Of a DNA stretch of 64,000 nucleotides, positions 1 to 6,138 are shown in pieces. The notes beneath the pieces are model-generated. The model saw only the letters and a program-made list of their open reading frames with translations, made no database searches and had not been told where the DNA came from. The position numbers and the translations under genes are program-made. This DNA comes from Escherichia coli (lineage in GTDB: Bacteria > Pseudomonadota > Gammaproteobacteria > Enterobacterales > Enterobacteriaceae). The DNA lies in the NCBI RefSeq assembly GCF_048403405.1, contig NZ_CP183129.1; one strand, written 5' to 3'. The number at the start of each line of letters is the position of its first letter. Position 1 is the first letter of the stretch.

Positions 1-164
1 ATCTATAGCGATAAATGAAACATCTTAAAAGTTTTAGTATCATATTCGTGTTGGATTATTCTGCATTTTTGGGGATAATGGACCTGCCGACTGATTAATG
101 AGGGTTAATCAGTATGCAGTGGCATAAAAAAGCAAATAAAGGCATATAACAGAGGGTTAATAAC
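1..164 (+). promoter_or_regulatory. ompC promoter and 5' UTR (window begins inside the OmpR-binding region)
   Basis: AT-rich sequence immediately upstream of the ompC ATG at 165, matching my recollection of the K-12 ompC upstream region; long leader before the start codon. No TSS mapped here. Confidence 0.55.
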
Positions 165-1259
<1,095 letters not shown>

Positions 1260-1277
1260 TCTCGATTGATATCGAAC

Positions 1278-1300
1278 AAAGGGCCTGCGGGCCCTTTTTT
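1278..1300 (+). terminator. Rho-independent terminator of ompC
   Basis: GC hairpin aaagggcctgcgggccc followed by a T-run, 20 bp after the ompC stop. Confidence 0.7.
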
Positions 1301-1370
1301 CATTGTTTTCAGCGTACAAACACAGTTTTTTGGTGTACTCTTGCGACCGTTCGCATGAGGATAATCACGT

Positions 1371-2426
1371 ATGGAAATAAGCTTTACCCGCGTGGCACTG
1401 CTGGCTGCCGCGCTCTTCTTTGTTGGTTGCGATCAAAAAACACAACCCGCCAAAACCCACGCTACTGAAGTTACCGTTCTTGAAGGCAAAACCATGGGTA
1501 CCTTCTGGCGTGCCAGCATTCCGGGCATTGACGCCAAACGCAGTGCCGAACTTAAAGAAAAGATTCAGACCCAGCTGGACGCCGACGATCAGCTGCTTTC
1601 GACCTATAAAAAAGATTCCGCGCTGATGCGATTTAACGACTCGCAAAGTTTATCGCCGTGGCCGGTAAGTGAAGCGATGGCCGATATCGTCACCACCTCG
1701 CTGCGCATTGGCGCAAGGACCGATGGTGCGATGGATATAACCGTCGGGCCGCTGGTGAATCTGTGGGGCTTTGGCCCGGAACAACAGCCGGTTCAAATTC
1801 CGAGCCAGGAACAGATCGATGCGATGAAAGCCAAAACCGGCTTACAGCACCTGTCGGTCATTAATCAGTCGCATCAGCAATATCTGCAAAAAGACCTGCC
1901 GGATTTATATGTCGATCTCTCCACTGTCGGTGAAGGTTATGCGGCGGATCACCTGGCACGCTTGATGGAGCAGGAAGGTATTTCTCGCTACCTGGTGTCG
2001 GTGGGCGGGGCGCTGAACAGCCGTGGTATGAACGGTGAAGGCCAGCCGTGGCGAGTGGCGATTCAAAAACCAACCGATAAAGAAAACGCAGTTCAGGCGG
2101 TGGTGGATATCAACGGCCACGGTATCAGCACCTCCGGCAGCTACCGCAACTATTACGAACTGGACGGCAAACGCCTTTCTCATGTTATCGATCCGCAAAC
2201 CGGACGACCTATCGAGCATAATCTGGTATCCGTGACGGTGATTGCACCGACGGCGCTGGAAGCCGACGCCTGGGATACAGGTTTGATGGTGCTCGGGCCA
2301 GAGAAAGCCAAAGAGGTTGTTCGCCGGGAAGGGTTGGCGGTTTATATGATCACCAAAGAGGGCGATAGCTTTAAAACCTGGATGTCGCCGCAGTTTAAAA
2401 GCTTCCTGGTGAGCGAAAAAAATTAA
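1371..2426 (+). CDS. apbE: FAD:protein FMN transferase (ApbE/Ftp) lipoprotein
   Basis: 351 aa; lipoprotein signal ...LFFVGC; full-length match to the ApbE sequence as I recall it. Confidence 0.9.
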   Translation: MEISFTRVALLAAALFFVGCDQKTQPAKTHATEVTVLEGKTMGTFWRASIPGIDAKRSAELKEKIQTQLDADDQLLSTYKKDSALMRFNDSQSLSPWPVSEAMADIVTTSLRIGARTDGAMDITVGPLVNLWGFGPEQQPVQIPSQEQIDAMKAKTGLQHLSVINQSHQQYLQKDLPDLYVDLSTVGEGYAADHLARLMEQEGISRYLVSVGGALNSRGMNGEGQPWRVAIQKPTDKENAVQAVVDINGHGISTSGSYRNYYELDGKRLSHVIDPQTGRPIEHNLVSVTVIAPTALEADAWDTGLMVLGPEKAKEVVRREGLAVYMITKEGDSFKTWMSPQFKSFLVSEKN

Positions 2427-2432
2427 AGCGCA
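2420..2432 (+). promoter_or_regulatory. Ada box (AAANNAAAGCGCA) of the ada-alkB promoter, overlapping the apbE stop codon
   Basis: aaattaaagcgca matches the Ada-box consensus and lies about 70 bp upstream of the ada ATG. Confidence 0.55.
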
Positions 2433-2499
2433 AGATTGTTGGTTTTTGTGTGATGGTGACCGGACAGACTAAAGGCTATCCTTAACCAGGGAGCTGATT

Positions 2500-3564
2500 A
2501 TGAAAAACGCCACACGCTTAACTGACGATCAACGCTGGCAATCTGTCTTAGCACGCGACCCGAACGCCGACGGCGAATTCGTTTTCGCCGTGCGCACCAC
2601 GGGTATCTTTTGCCGTCCGTCTTGCCGCGCCAGACATGCCTTGCGGGAAAACGTTTCTTTCTATACGGATGCCAGCGAGGCGCTTGCCGCTGGCTTTCGC
2701 CCCTGCAAACGTTGTCAGCCAGATAAAGCCAATGCCCAGCAACATCGCCTTGATAAAATTACCCACGCCTGCCGACTGCTGGAACAGGAAACGCCTGTAA
2801 CGCTGGAAGCCTTAGCTGACCAGGTGGCGATGAGTCCGTTCCATTTGCATCGATTGTTTAAAGCGACTACCGGAATGACGCCGAAAGCCTGGCAACAGGC
2901 ATGGCGTGCTCGCCGTTTACGCGACTCGCTGGCGAAAGGGGAGAGCGTGACTACATCTATTCTTAACGCTGGATTCCCCGACAGCAGCAGTTACTACCGT
3001 AAAGCCGACGAAACGTTGGGCATGACGGCTAAACAGTTTCGTCACGGAGGTGAAAATCTGGCTGTGCGTTATGCGCTGGCTGATTGTGAACTGGGCCGTT
3101 GCCTGGTGGCTGAAAGCGAGCGGGGGATTTGCGCGATATTGCTGGGCGATGATGACGCGACATTAATCAGCGAGTTGCAGCAGATGTTTCCCGCTGCCGA
3201 CAACGCGCCTGCCGATTTGACGTTTCAACAACATGTGCGTGACGTGATCGCCAGCCTCAATCAACGCGATACGCCGCTGACGTTACCGCTGGATATTCGC
3301 GGCACTGCTTTTCAGCAACAAGTCTGGCAGGCACTGCGCACGATACCTTGCGGTGAAACCGTCAGTTATCAGCAACTGGCTAACGCCATCGGCAAACCGA
3401 AAGCGGTACGGGCCGTTGCCAGCGCCTGTGCCGCCAACAAGCTGGCTATCGTAATACCCTGTCATCGAGTGGTCCGTGGTGATGGCACACTTTCAGGTTA
3501 CCGCTGGGGCGTGTCGCGTAAAGCGCAACTGCTGCGCCGCGAAGCTGAGAATGAGGAGAGGTAA
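2500..3564 (+). CDS. ada: Bifunctional transcriptional activator / O6-methylguanine-DNA methyltransferase Ada
   Basis: 354 aa; N-terminal Cys cluster (CRPSCRARH...CKRCQPD), AraC-type HTH, C-terminal PCHRVV active-site motif. Confidence 0.95.
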   Translation: MKNATRLTDDQRWQSVLARDPNADGEFVFAVRTTGIFCRPSCRARHALRENVSFYTDASEALAAGFRPCKRCQPDKANAQQHRLDKITHACRLLEQETPVTLEALADQVAMSPFHLHRLFKATTGMTPKAWQQAWRARRLRDSLAKGESVTTSILNAGFPDSSSYYRKADETLGMTAKQFRHGGENLAVRYALADCELGRCLVAESERGICAILLGDDDATLISELQQMFPAADNAPADLTFQQHVRDVIASLNQRDTPLTLPLDIRGTAFQQQVWQALRTIPCGETVSYQQLANAIGKPKAVRAVASACAANKLAIVIPCHRVVRGDGTLSGYRWGVSRKAQLLRREAENEER

Positions 3565-4214
3565 TGTTGGATCTGTTTGCCGATGCTGAACCGTGGCAAG
3601 AGCCACTGGCGGCTGGTGCGGTAATTTTACGGCGTTTTGCTTTTAATGCTGCGGAGCAACTGATCCGCGATATTAATGACGTTGCCAGCCAGTCGCCGTT
3701 TCGCCAGATGGTCACCCCCGGGGGATATACTATGTCGGTGGCGATGACCAACTGTGGGCATCTGGGCTGGACGACCCATCGGCAAGGTTATCTCTATTCG
3801 CCCATTGATCCGCAAACAAATAAACCGTGGCCCGCCATGCCACAAAGCTTTCATGATTTATGTCAACGTGCGGCTACGGCGGCGGGCTATCCAGATTTCC
3901 AGCCAGATGCTTGTCTTATCAACCGCTACGCTCCTGGCGCGAAACTGTCGCTGCATCAGGATAAAGACGAACCGGATCTGCGCGCGCCGATTGTTTCTGT
4001 TTCTCTGGGCTTACCCGCGATTTTTCAATTTGGCGGCCTGAAACGAAATGATCCGCTAAAACGTTTGTTGTTGGAACATGGCGATGTGGTGGTATGGGGC
4101 GGTGAATCGCGGCTGTTTTATCATGGGATTCAACCGTTGAAAGCGGGGTTTCATCCACTCACCACCGACTGCCGCTACAACCTGACATTCCGTCAGGCAG
4201 GTAAAAAAGAATAA
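3564..4214 (+). CDS. alkB: Fe(II)/2-oxoglutarate-dependent DNA/RNA demethylase AlkB
   Basis: 216 aa; start overlaps the ada stop (TAATG); LHQDKDE iron-binding motif. Confidence 0.95.
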   Translation: MLDLFADAEPWQEPLAAGAVILRRFAFNAAEQLIRDINDVASQSPFRQMVTPGGYTMSVAMTNCGHLGWTTHRQGYLYSPIDPQTNKPWPAMPQSFHDLCQRAATAAGYPDFQPDACLINRYAPGAKLSLHQDKDEPDLRAPIVSVSLGLPAIFQFGGLKRNDPLKRLLLEHGDVVVWGGESRLFYHGIQPLKAGFHPLTTDCRYNLTFRQAGKKE

Positions 4215-4289
4215 AAATAAGAATTATTATTGCTGTGCGCGCGAAGATGTTTAAACTGCGGGCTGTAATTCATTGTCCGGGTTTTCTGC

Positions 4290-5933
4290 ATGGAACTTCT
4301 TGTACTTGTCTGGCGGCAGTATCGCTGGCCATTTATCAGTGTGATGGCGCTAAGCCTCGCCAGTGCGGCATTAGGCATTGGCTTAATTGCTTTTATCAAT
4401 CAGCGCCTTATCGAAACGGCGGATACCAGTCTGCTGGTGTTGCCGGAGTTTCTGGGGTTATTGCTGCTGTTGATGGCCGTCACTCTCGGATCGCAACTGG
4501 CGCTCACCACTTTGGGGCATCACTTCGTTTACCGACTGCGTAGTGAATTTATCAAGCGAATTCTCGATACCCACGTCGAGCGCATTGAACAACTTGGTAG
4601 CGCCTCGTTGTTGGCGGGGTTAACCAGCGATGTGCGCAATATCACCATTGCTTTTGTGCGTCTGCCGGAACTGGTGCAGGGGATCATCCTCACTATCGGT
4701 TCCGCGGCGTACTTGTGGATGCTGTCGGGCAAAATGTTGCTGGTAACGGCTATCTGGATGGCAGTCACCATCTGGGGCGGTTTTATACTGGTGGCGCGGG
4801 TGTACAAACATATGGCGACCCTGCGTGAAACCGAAGACAAGCTGTACACGGATTTTCAAACCGTACTCGAAGGGCGCAAAGAGCTGACTCTGAACCGGGA
4901 ACGCGCCGAGTATGTGTTTAACAACCTCTACATTCCTGATGCGCAAGAGTATCGCCATCATATTATCCGCGCAGACACCTTCCATCTTAGTGCCGTGAAC
5001 TGGTCAAACATCATGATGCTGGGCGCAATCGGTCTGGTGTTCTGGATGGCGAACAGTCTCGGTTGGGCTGATACCAACGTTGCCGCGACCTATTCGTTGA
5101 CGCTGTTATTCCTGCGTACGCCGCTGCTTTCGGCGGTTGGTGCATTACCGACGCTGCTGACGGCGCAGGTGGCGTTTAACAAGCTGAACAAATTCGCACT
5201 CGCGCCTTTCAAAGCAGAGTTTCCGCGCCCACAGGCGTTTCCCAACTGGCAAACGCTGGAGCTGCGTAACGTGACGTTTGCTTATCAGGATAACGCGTTT
5301 TCCGTTGGGCCGATTAACCTCACCATCAAACGTGGCGAGCTGCTGTTTCTGATTGGCGGCAACGGTAGCGGAAAATCGACGCTGGCGATGTTGCTGACGG
5401 GCTTGTATCAGCCACAAAGCGGCGAAATCTTGCTGGATGGCAACCCTGTCAGCGGCGAACAACCGGAAGATTATCGCAAACTGTTTTCGGCAGTGTTTAC
5501 CGATGTCTGGCTGTTCGATCAACTGTTGGGGCCGGAGGGTCAACCCGCTAACCCGCAACTGATTGAGAAGTGGCTGGTGCAGCTGAAAATGGCTCATAAG
5601 CTTGAGTTAAGCAACGGGCGTATTGTTAACCTGAAGTTATCAAAAGGGCAGAAAAAACGCGTCGCGCTGTTGCTGGCGCTGGCAGAAGAACGCGATATTA
5701 TCCTGCTGGATGAATGGGCGGCGGATCAGGATCCACACTTCCGTCGTGAGTTTTATCAGGTGTTGCTGCCGCTGATGCAGGAGATGGGTAAAACTATTTT
5801 CGCCATCAGTCATGATGATCATTACTTTATCCACGCCGACCGCCTGCTGGAAATGCGCAACGGGCTACTTAGCGAGCTGACAGGCGAAGAGCGCGATGCT
5901 GCTTCGCGTGATGCCGTTGCCCGGACGGCATAA
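4290..5933 (+). CDS. yojI: ABC transporter (fused permease/ATPase), microcin J25 efflux protein YojI
   Basis: 547 aa; N-terminal TM helices, Walker [13 protein letters not shown] signature LSKGQKKR. Confidence 0.9.
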
Positions 5934-6138
5934 TATTTCGACGCTGACCTGGCGGACTGCTGCTGCCAGGTCAATATTCTAAAAATCCCTTCGTTTCTAA
6001 TAACCCTATAATTAATCAACGAAATTATAATGTTTCTAAAAATAGAATATAATTTATAAACATTATTTAAATGTTGTTACTTAAGTGTTACCGTTGATGC
6101 CGCGCAAATCTCACCTGCAATAAAGCGACTAAAAGTAA

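Follow-up and report, generated by a model that had tools for sequence, protein, structure and literature searches.

Ada acts on its own gene through an operator that has been described at this same locus in another E. coli strain, K-12, as the Ada box (Teo et al., 1986) and as a pair of elements, box A and box B (He et al., 2005; both boxes are defined in PMC4437013, which cites that work). Ada methylated at Cys38 binds the operator and makes contacts with both boxes, R45 and R71 read A/T base pairs just downstream of box A, and activation needs the C-terminal domain of RNA polymerase alpha (PMC4437013). In Table 7 of PMC6505713, AATTAAAGCGCAA is entered 66 nt upstream of ada. In that study MNNG induced ada, alkB and alkA more than any other genes, and a single induced segment covered ada, alkB and yojI (PMC6505713), and on a plasmid in E. 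coli the ada fragment from -100 to -1 gives strong induction of GFP by MMS and MNNG (PMC3788762).

Two further K-12 promoters resemble that of ada. The alkA promoter has the AAT-N6-GCAA core (AATATGAAAGCAA), and its TATGCT is the hexamer that most Enterobacteriaceae have at the TAnnCT position of ada. The alkA transcription start site (TSS) in the dataset of Kim et al. puts TATGCT at -12 to -7 and the box at -47 to -35 (centre -41), as the literature expects. The alkA box thus overlaps the -35 region, whereas the ada box stands 10 or 21 bp farther upstream, depending on the start site used; the mode of polymerase contact at alkA is described as different from that at ada (PMC4437013). The aidB promoter also carries AAT-N6-GCAA (AATGTTTTAGCAA), with CATACT 45 nt from box A as against 44 nt to CAGCCT in ada, and its box A begins 2 nt after the TAA of a co-oriented upstream gene, yjfC. 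Unlike the arrangement at ada, the aidB box follows the upstream stop and does not overlap it, and box B is directly preceded by A instead of C, for which an approximately 10-fold lower affinity has been reported (PMC3788762). The Salmonella ada promoter (GAATTAAAACGCA; the box sequence is the same in PMC3788762) shares the overlap with the AAT-TAA of apbE (L026, L027), but a 10-nt insertion separates its CAnnnT and TAnnCT blocks, and Salmonella Ada is reportedly a weaker activator (PMC3788762).

Here we examine the operator in a 64-kb stretch of E. coli DNA (the window). The window is identical to K-12 from apbE codon 348 through the T-tract, with the same flanking genes, 73-nt spacing and ATG. 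Three substitutions distinguish its core promoter from that of K-12 (2449 C>T, 2464 G>A and 2468 C>A) and leave the box untouched; the last turns the CAGCCT of K-12 into CAGACT, which all six representatives of other Escherichia species have as well. The site is the Ada operator of the ada-alkB promoter, a K-12 textbook site, and as such is already known. What is added here is the family-wide freezing of the last codon and stop of apbE, the placement of transcription starts relative to the box, and an appraisal of read-through from apbE.

The Ada box at the apbE-ada junction

The genes apbE, ada and alkB are co-oriented (Table 1), and the annotation of the first as apbE is shared by K-12 and strain TUM14771. 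AlkB has an NCBIfam equivalog match of 381 bits. Homology of ApbE to more distant solved structures (6nxi, 5mgy) stops at residues 343-346 of 351, so the tail of the protein lies outside the conserved fold. Upstream, the ompC terminator isolates apbE from the strong ompC transcript, and the ompC unit in the SMRT-Cappable-seq table ends at 2311603, or about window position 1302. An Rfam scan of window positions 1-6000 returned no RNA family.

Table 1. Features of the apbE-ada-alkB region, in window coordinates.
Feature	Position	Strand	Basis or remark
ompC intrinsic terminator	1278..1305	+	terminator scan: 8-bp stem and T-run
apbE (ftp) CDS, including TAA stop	1371..2426	+	ORF list; NCBIfam equivalog NF007774, 725 bits, full length
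Teo-type Ada box, AAATTAAAGCGCA	2420..2432	+	sole match in the window; same in K-12
Ada box A (AAT), the last sense codon of apbE (Asn351)	2421..2423	+	AAT-N6-GCAA match at 2421-2433
apbE stop TAA, which opens the A/T-rich 6-nt spacer from box A to box B (its first 3 nt)	2424..2426	+	ORF end
Ada box B (GCAA)	2430..2433	+	invariant in 83/83 junction sequences
Conserved GGTTTTTG block	2441..2448	+	gap-free, fixed distance from the box
CAGACT (K-12: CAGCCT), conserved CAnnnT	2465..2470	+	putative -10 of the Ada-dependent promoter (P1)
TATCCT, conserved TAnnCT block	2477..2482	+	-10 hexamer for TSS 2489 (-12 to -7 of that TSS)
Classical meAda-dependent start (putative)	2478	+	8 nt after CAnnnT
Shine-Dalgarno AGGGAG of ada	2488..2493	+	AGGAG block conserved 6-7 nt before ATG in the 80-species alignment
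ada TSS, mapped in exponential growth without induction	2489	+	PMC3415461; conversion: ada ATG 2308427 = window 2500
ada CDS	2500..3564	+	ORF; NCBIfam equivalog NF011964, 748 bits
alkB CDS	3564..4214	+	ATG shares one base with ada TAA (TAATG)

An earlier note on this DNA had claimed an Ada box at 2420-2432 that overlaps the apbE stop and lies about 70 bp upstream of the ada ATG. Direct reading and a pattern search both bear this out. The match to AAATTAAAGCGCA on the + strand is the only one in the 64 kb, the reading frame of apbE ends GAA AAA AAT TAA with the stop inside the box, and 67 nt separate the box end at 2432 from the ATG at 2500. Its identification as the Ada site of the ada promoter, overlapping the 3' end of apbE, likewise agrees with the published descriptions (PMC4437013; PMC6505713, Table 7). 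In the A/B description, an Ada site consists of AAT, a 6-nt spacer and GCAA, all on the same strand as the gene under its control, and this is found in AATTAAAGCGCAA at 2421-2433 on the + strand. The spacer opens with TAAA, which places A/T pairs directly 3' of box A, and AATTAAA is invariant in the 83 junction sequences save for one CAT variant.

The lone match in 64 kb is not significant by itself: the chance expectation for a pattern of the AAATTAAAGCGCA type in this length is 0.15, and at least one match occurred in 15 of 100 shuffles. The looser AAT-N6-GCAA was found six times in the window against 17 expected. Significance comes instead from position and conservation; we estimate the chance of a motif on the right strand less than 100 bp upstream of ada at roughly 1e-4.

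Conservation across the Enterobacteriaceae

The survey covered 80 species of Enterobacteriaceae in 17 genera, with 83 junction sequences available for the motif and 81 for hexamer spacing. The gene directly upstream of ada is apbE in all 80 species, and the spacer measures 66-83 nt with one exception. AAT-N6-GCAA stands at offset -3 from the apbE stop in 82 of the 83 junctions, across all 17 genera; in one species (L034) box A reads CAT. Within E. coli, the 321-bp junction is present in 5421 of 5426 genomes, each at 90% identity or more. A megablast search of all E. coli genomes with the 36 nt of the box region gave no match, and low-complexity masking of this A/T-rich query is the probable cause.

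The last codon of apbE is AAT in 79 of the 80 species, whereas AAT accounts for 43% of 1379 other Asn codons of apbE and ada. Its stop is TAA in 80/80, while at the same loci TAA makes up 66% of ada stops and 85% of alkB stops. Synonymous positions are frozen only at this last codon and stop, the codons upstream vary freely, and conservation reaches 10-25 nt past the stop codon. In one sequence (L072) apbE ends earlier at a TAG, and AATTAAAGCGCAAG is nevertheless retained, which indicates that it is the DNA, and not the protein, that is under constraint.

The consensus AAANNAAAGCGCA, against which the earlier note had read the box, is matched in the window but proved lineage-specific. The full pattern occurs in just 11 of the 83 junctions and its AAAGCGCA core in 13. 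Most genera have AAAAAGCAA, so the AAANNAAAGCGCA consensus belongs to Escherichia and a few other lineages. By comparison of the junctions, then, the conserved core of the operator is AAT-N6-GCAA and not the older AAAGCGCA box.

Core promoter and transcription starts

Kim et al. (2012) list an ada TSS at 2308438 of NC_000913.2, minus strand, with 29 reads, a 5' UTR of 11 nt and a promoter string ending in CCTTAACCAG (PMC3415461, supplementary file 2). This corresponds to window position 2489, which lies 7 nt after TATCCT and gives the box a position of -68 to -56, centred at -62. The Cappable-seq supplement (PMC4782308) has no entry in the 23104xx, 23105xx and 23115xx coordinate ranges, and none of the Kim 2012 rows listed is a Klebsiella ada start.

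Two hexamers in the spacer are conserved in their distances. A TAnnnT hexamer is found 17 nt from the ada ATG in 73 of the 81 sequences, and the distance from the start of box A to the start of CAnnnT is 44 nt in 80 of them, including one with an insertion of about 150 nt farther downstream. Between the CAnnnT and TAnnCT modules, Salmonella has an insertion of 10 nt, the C. freundii group one of 6 nt and C. sedlakii one of about 150 nt. The GGTTTTTG block may provide the Ada-coupled promoter with its -35 region (TTTTTG, 2443-2448), with an UP-like contact for RNA polymerase alpha, or with both.

In the classical numbering of ada, +1 presumably falls near 2478, with the box at -57 to -45 and its centre at -51. 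Mutations described by Sakumi and Sekiguchi in 1989 reportedly lie at C-47, inside AAAGCGCA, and at T-34, and since 2478 is the only +1 that fits these positions, we infer it as the classical start. The induced start may lie near 2478, a placement that draws also on comparison between species, and of the conserved -10-like hexamers it is CAnnnT that would serve the induced promoter. The TSS at 2489, measured without alkylation, is 11 nt away from the putative classical start. A mapped start that could not be reconciled with the box would have spoken against the site; both 2489 and the putative position near 2478 leave the box upstream, where it is competent for activation, and no incompatible start was encountered.

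On the + strand of the apbE-ada junction a sigma-70 scan detected nothing that resembles a promoter, as expected for a promoter that depends on an activator. Read directly, TGGTGA/TATCCT scores 7/12 and TTTTTG/CAGACT 5/12. A weak core that fails a consensus scan, combined with an activator site upstream of -35, is the pattern of a class I sigma-70 promoter. Two other candidates were rejected. GATGGT (2452-2457) as a -10, which the window's 2449 C>T would provide with an extended -10 TG, fits neither TSS 2489 nor the conserved blocks, and in the pair TTGCGT/TAAAGG neither hexamer is conserved.

Tentatively, the spacer may hold two nested promoters, although we consider this arrangement rather unlikely. 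P1, coupled to Ada, would consist of box A, the 44-nt distance and CAnnnT, with its start near 2478; P2, basal and independent of Ada, would consist of TAnnCT, the 17-nt distance and the ATG, with its start at 2489.

Transcription across the junction

The earlier note had further pointed out that apbE read-through and Ada autoregulation share a few base pairs. If this had a functional side, apbE transcription would contribute materially to Ada or compete with methylated Ada (meAda) at these positions, and the adaptive response would be tuned by the expression of apbE. The layout is favorable to this idea. The genes share a strand, the spacer is short, the apbE-ada arrangement is kept in 80 species, and the terminator scan found no hairpin with a T-run from the stop of apbE to the start of ada; the sole hairpin predicted in the spacer pairs box B with the T-tract and has no U-run after it. 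A tiling-array apbE segment extends from about window position 1346 to about 2480, roughly 20 nt before the ada ATG, and so crosses the box and the core promoter.

The expression data point the other way. The MNNG-induced segment consists of ada, alkB and yojI and excludes apbE, whose own segment is classed as unchanged by MNNG at 10.34 versus 9.98 log2 (PMC6505713). With the noise floor at 9.0, this signal indicates that apbE is weakly transcribed. In uninduced cells ada has its own TSS (PMC3415461), and the -100 to -1 fragment alone is strongly inducible on a plasmid (PMC3788762). The strand, spacing and lack of a terminator are those of an apbE-ada-alkB operon, but among the SMRT-Cappable-seq units listed there is none that spans apbE and ada, whereas the ompC unit is listed and ends at its terminator. 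Basal Ada production has been put at about one molecule per generation, Ada is absent from 20-30% of cells, and a second copy of PAda-ada on a mini-F plasmid has the effect of a plain gene duplication. Basal expression can therefore be explained without read-through, which cannot be large. The idea of functional read-through is thus weakly supported, and we regard it as improbable.

Less probable still, and in our view very unlikely, is that the conserved block after the stop (GCAAGATTGCGGGTTTTT in most genera) is mainly a small intrinsic terminator of apbE whose likeness to an Ada box is fortuitous. In most genera GCAA-GA-TTGC forms a palindrome with a conserved T-run after it, the Salmonella fold pairs CGCA with UGCG between A- and U-tracts, and the apbE array signal does stop within the spacer. 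However, the stem has a mere 3-4 bp and folds no better than shuffled sequence (z = -0.5 in Enterobacter, +0.5 in Salmonella), and E. coli has lost the palindrome (GATTGT) while keeping the box. Boxes A and B, moreover, match the structurally defined Ada contacts (PMC4437013), and AAT-N6-GCAA recurs at alkA and aidB. Neither the terminator scan nor folding found an intrinsic apbE terminator in the spacer (a G+C-rich stem of at least 5 bp with a U-run), and on these results the box-B/T-tract hairpin was ruled out as a terminator.

A chance match, or conservation owed to the coding and stop context of apbE alone, has next to no probability even though the motif turned up in 15% of the 64-kb shuffles and AAT-N6-GCAA by itself is common, since the site is the published operator (PMC4437013, PMC6505713) and the pattern of conservation across the aligned junctions (past the stop, confined within apbE to the last codon and stop, and kept as noncoding DNA in L072) already refutes it.

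Proposed mechanism and origin of the overlap

Very probably, then, 2420-2433 is the ada-alkB operator, at which meAda recruits polymerase and within which the apbE frame ends, an ancestral overlap that freezes codon and stop. Repair of methylphosphotriesters by Ada would methylate Cys38, and the N-terminal domain would thereby gain sequence-specific affinity for box A and box B. Bound upstream, meAda would recruit RNA polymerase to a core promoter, weak in itself, within the next 67 bp. The expected outcome is positive autoregulation of ada, of alkB and, by run-on, of yojI.

The site overlaps apbE because the apbE frame continues into the A/T-rich operator, where the first stop codon closes it. 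The Asn351 codon serves as box A, and the TAA belongs to the A/T spacer read by Ada. TAA is the only stop codon without a G:C pair. As a consequence of the overlap, the last codon of apbE is frozen as AAT, never AAC, and the stop is always TAA. To judge from its distribution, the overlap is ancestral to the Enterobacteriaceae, and it probably has no regulatory purpose of its own. With box A in the last codon of apbE, polymerase must cross the operator for every complete apbE mRNA, so that meAda at saturation could form a roadblock and cut apbE transcripts short while the adaptive response is under way.

Implications

The position of the operator relative to apbE can be read from any annotated K-12 record and carries little weight as a discovery. 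The junction is an example of dual-use DNA, in which a transcription-factor site fixes a synonymous codon (AAT) and the stop (TAA) of a neighboring gene throughout the family. For engineering, this means that tagging the end of apbE by a C-terminal fusion, recoding or deleting it, or exchanging its stop for TGA or TAG is predicted to damage the operator of ada, by which the adaptive response may be crippled, and that 'Pada' parts unavoidably include apbE coding sequence.

A two-module promoter, if real, would bear on the source of basal Ada, the level of which controls cell-to-cell variation in alkylation mutagenesis. Should both promoters exist, the insertions seen in some lineages would alter the leader length of the induced transcript with both modules untouched, and P2, not leakage of P1 or read-through from apbE, would be the source of the approximately one Ada molecule per cell from which the stochastic adaptive response starts.

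The locus and its genes

The first 6 kb of the window carry, on the + strand, the ompC-apbE-ada-alkB-yojI segment of E. coli, in which four genes were identified full length by NCBIfam equivalog models; an RNA family search of the same 6 kb gave no match. Of 5426 complete E. coli genomes, 5421 carry the apbE-ada junction. Compared with K-12 MG1655, the Ada box and its flanks are identical, and the 73-nt apbE-ada spacer has only three differences (2449, 2464 and 2468), all outside the box. No plausible ORF or promoter was seen on the minus strand across 2414-2500. The ada stop and the alkB start share one base (TAATG, 3562-3566), and no + strand terminator was found after alkB (4215-4289). The MNNG-induced transcript continues into yojI in a tiling-array study (PMC6505713), and a separate yojI TSS is listed at 4237 (Kim et al., 2012; PMC3415461).

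Features of the locus and insertions in the apbE-ada spacer of reference loci (L numbers)
Feature	Position	Strand	Basis or occurrence
ApbE	1371-2426	+	NCBIfam equivalog, full length
Ada	2500-3564	+	NCBIfam equivalog, full length
AlkB	3564-4214	+	NCBIfam equivalog, full length
YojI-type ABC exporter	4290-5933	+	NCBIfam equivalog, full length
Box A (AAT)	2421-2423	+	A/B-box definition, PMC4437013
Box B (GCAA)	2430-2433	+	A/B-box definition, PMC4437013
6-nt insertion	between CAnnnT and TAnnCT		C. freundii group: L010, L012, L015-L017, L019, L021, L022, L024
10-nt insertion	between CAnnnT and TAnnCT		Salmonella (L026, L027), C. amalonaticus group (L018/L020/L023), Intestinirhabdus; also L081
~150-nt insertion	between CAnnnT and TAnnCT		C. 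sedlakii (L025 2330-2475)

Upstream, ompC (165-1259) contains an in-frame TAG at 828-830, where G>A at 829 turns Trp222 (TGG) into a stop. TUM14771, the nearest complete genome, is set apart from the window by only 2 of 5119 bases; it carries TGG and encodes an intact 364-aa OmpC. The nonsense codon thus predicts porin loss, with no OmpC in the window strain. In the compared stretch the window departs from both TUM14771 and K-12 at just one further site: G>T at 76 turns the ompC -10 hexamer (74-79) from GAGAAT into GATAAT, nearer consensus, and the SMRT-Cappable-seq ompC start (NC_000913.3 2312828) corresponds to 86, 7 nt downstream of this hexamer. It is odd to find a -10 change toward consensus paired with a nonsense mutation in one gene.

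The Ada box

In a pattern search across the 64 kb, AAATTAAAGCGCA at 2420-2432 is the sole match to AAANNAAAGCGCA. The end of apbE reads GAA AAA AAT TAA in frame, with the stop (2424-2426) inside the box, and direct reading thus confirms to the base the position and overlap described in the earlier note. The chance expectation for AAANNAAAGCGCA is 0.15 per window, with at least one match in 15 of 100 shuffles, and the shorter core AAT-N6-GCAA is common in the window (6 observed vs 17 expected). A lone match per window is unremarkable; the site is meaningful through its location and conservation.

Methylated N-Ada reads an A box and a B box at the ada, alkA and aidB promoters (PMC4437013, summarizing He et al., 2005), with Ada R45 and R71 touching A/T pairs both in box A and just downstream (PMC4437013). 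In the MNNG tiling-array study (PMC6505713), Table 7 gives exactly AATTAAAGCGCAA at a distance of 66 nt before the start of ada. The -100 to -1 region of E. coli ada alone on a plasmid confers strong MMS/MNNG induction (PMC3788762); this fragment equals 2400-2499, its first 27 bp being the end of apbE. Together with the K-12 identity, these studies identify the box as the known Ada operator of the ada promoter.

The box was followed through one genome per species (80 loci, 17 genera of Enterobacteriaceae). Every one of the 80 has apbE immediately upstream of ada and co-oriented with it, with a spacer of 66-83 nt except in C. sedlakii (227 nt). With K-12, TUM14771 and the window added, 82 of the 83 sequences have AAT-N6-GCAA starting precisely 3 nt ahead of the stop; box A always coincides with the apbE last codon and TAA opens the inter-box spacer. 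Because the full AAANNAAAGCGCA pattern occurs in only 11 of the 83 junctions (the AAAGCGCA core in 13) and most genera have AAAAAGCAA at the box, the phylogenetic footprint supports the A/B-box definition over the older 13-mer. Enterobacter asburiae INSAq146 (L034) is the sole sequence among the 83 with box A CAT (His) rather than AAT.

Spacer architecture and transcription start

Conserved blocks in the alignment are AATTAAAnnGCAAG(A/G)TT, GGGTTTTT, CAnAcT, TAnnCTTA and AGGAG, and they fall into two modules. The first runs from the start of box A to that of the -10-like hexamer CAnnnT, a distance of 44 nt shared by 80 of the 81 sequences; in the second, the end of the hexamer TAnnCT lies 17 nt from the ATG (73 of 81). 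Variation in spacer length is confined to the gap between them, 0 or 1 nt in most genera. The C. sedlakii insertion hits the downstream hexamer, and box-44-CATACT remains intact. The Salmonella adaptive response has been reported to be weak. At 2468, the CAnnnT block reads CAGACT in the window, as it does in the representatives of all six other Escherichia species, and CAGCCT in K-12; the laboratory reference may carry a minority, weaker form of this hexamer.

The K-12 aidB promoter has the first module as in ada, with AATGTTTTAGCAA and with CATACT 45 nt from box A as against 44 nt in ada. Its box (L084 290-306, NC_000913.3 4414189-4414205) lies just past the end of yjfC, a co-oriented gene, and begins 2 nt beyond the yjfC TAA, an arrangement like that of apbE-ada.

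An ada TSS was assigned to NC_000913.2 2308438, minus strand (29 reads, 11-nt 5' UTR, promoter string ending ...GGCTATCCTTAACCAG; Kim et al., 2012, PMC3415461, supplementary file 2). The alkA entry of the same table serves as an internal check: its TSS (PMC3415461) sets TATGCT at -12 to -7 and puts AATATGAAAGCAA across -47 to -35, where it overlaps the -35 region, the placement known for this promoter. Converted through the ada ATG (2308427 in NC_000913.2, window 2500), the ada TSS is G2489, which places TATCCT (2477-2482) at -12 to -7 and the box at -68 to -56 (centre -62). Sakumi and Sekiguchi reportedly found in 1989 a footprint of methylated Ada (meAda) at ada from -63 to -31, with mutations C-to-G at -47 inside AAAGCGCA and T-to-G at -34, and Landini and Volkert are said to have located meAda between -60 and -40 in 1995. 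Given the sequence, this classical numbering fits +1 at A2478 only, which would put the box at -57 to -45.

CAnnnT may serve as the -10 of an Ada-dependent promoter that starts near 2478, in agreement with the classical numbering, and TAnnCT would be the -10 for the 2489 start, which was observed in the absence of alkylation. In the tiling array, unchanged and induced segments meet at ~2480 with a resolution of 7-14 nt, so this boundary cannot separate the two starts (PMC6505713). The choice between them leaves the identity of the box unaffected. A mapped start incompatible with the box, which the earlier note had held would count against it, was not found: both starts place the box upstream of the core promoter at an activation-suited distance.

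Transcription across the operator

Polymerase must cross the operator to complete apbE, so apbE transcription and Ada autoregulation share DNA. That apbE read-through contributes meaningfully to ada, however, is unsupported. In its favour, from the apbE stop to the ada ATG there is no terminator-like structure, the sole predicted spacer hairpin pairing box B with the T-tract with no U-run after it, and the apbE tiling-array segment (NC_000913.2 2308447-2309581, minus strand; ~1346-2480) extends across box and core promoter. Yet this segment stands only ~1.3 log2 units over the noise floor and is unresponsive to MNNG; the induced segment comprises ada-alkB-yojI and excludes apbE (PMC6505713). 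Moreover, uninduced cells already initiate transcription at a start belonging to ada (Kim et al., 2012; PMC3415461), and in SMRT-Cappable-seq ompC ends at its terminator, with no apbE-ada unit among the units listed. Single-molecule counts give ~1 Ada per generation, with none in 20-30% of cells, and a second PAda-ada copy acts as a plain gene duplication (PMC6818145). These data gave no evidence for quantitative importance of the shared DNA. Of the earlier proposal, the identity and position of the box stand; the read-through link from apbE to ada is unsupported.

Three apbE TSSs were assigned at 1098-1108, 263-273 nt upstream of the ATG (Kim et al., 2012; PMC3415461); they fall within the ompC 3' end, ahead of the terminator of that gene. 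On the tiling array, the segment for apbE begins only ~25 nt before the apbE ATG (~1346).

The operator and the end of apbE

Of the 80 species, 79 have AAT as the last codon of apbE and one has CAT, as against 43% AAT (594/1379) among the other Asn codons of the same apbE and ada genes. The apbE stop is TAA in 80/80; TAA makes up 66% of ada stops and 85% of those of alkB. Codons ahead of the last one vary freely, both synonymously and non-synonymously (tails SEKN, SGKN, REQN, NGAN, GEPN), and ApbE homology to more distant solved structures reaches no further than residues 343-346 of 351; most simply read, the tail is functionally unimportant. The record named Escherichia sp. ESNIH1 (L072, ~2414-2440) has a TAG stop two codons earlier, with AATTAAAGCGCAAG retained. 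It keeps AAT-TAA-AGCGCAAG downstream of the early TAG, an operator naturally uncoupled from apbE coding.

The apbE reading frame would thus enter an A/T-rich operator and terminate there, the operator dictating its AAT last codon and TAA stop; TAA, the sole stop codon without a G:C pair, would fit the A/T requirement downstream of box A (PMC4437013). The feature itself is already known, and the additions are modest: AAT-TAA frozen throughout the family, a spacer made of two modules and the parallel at aidB.
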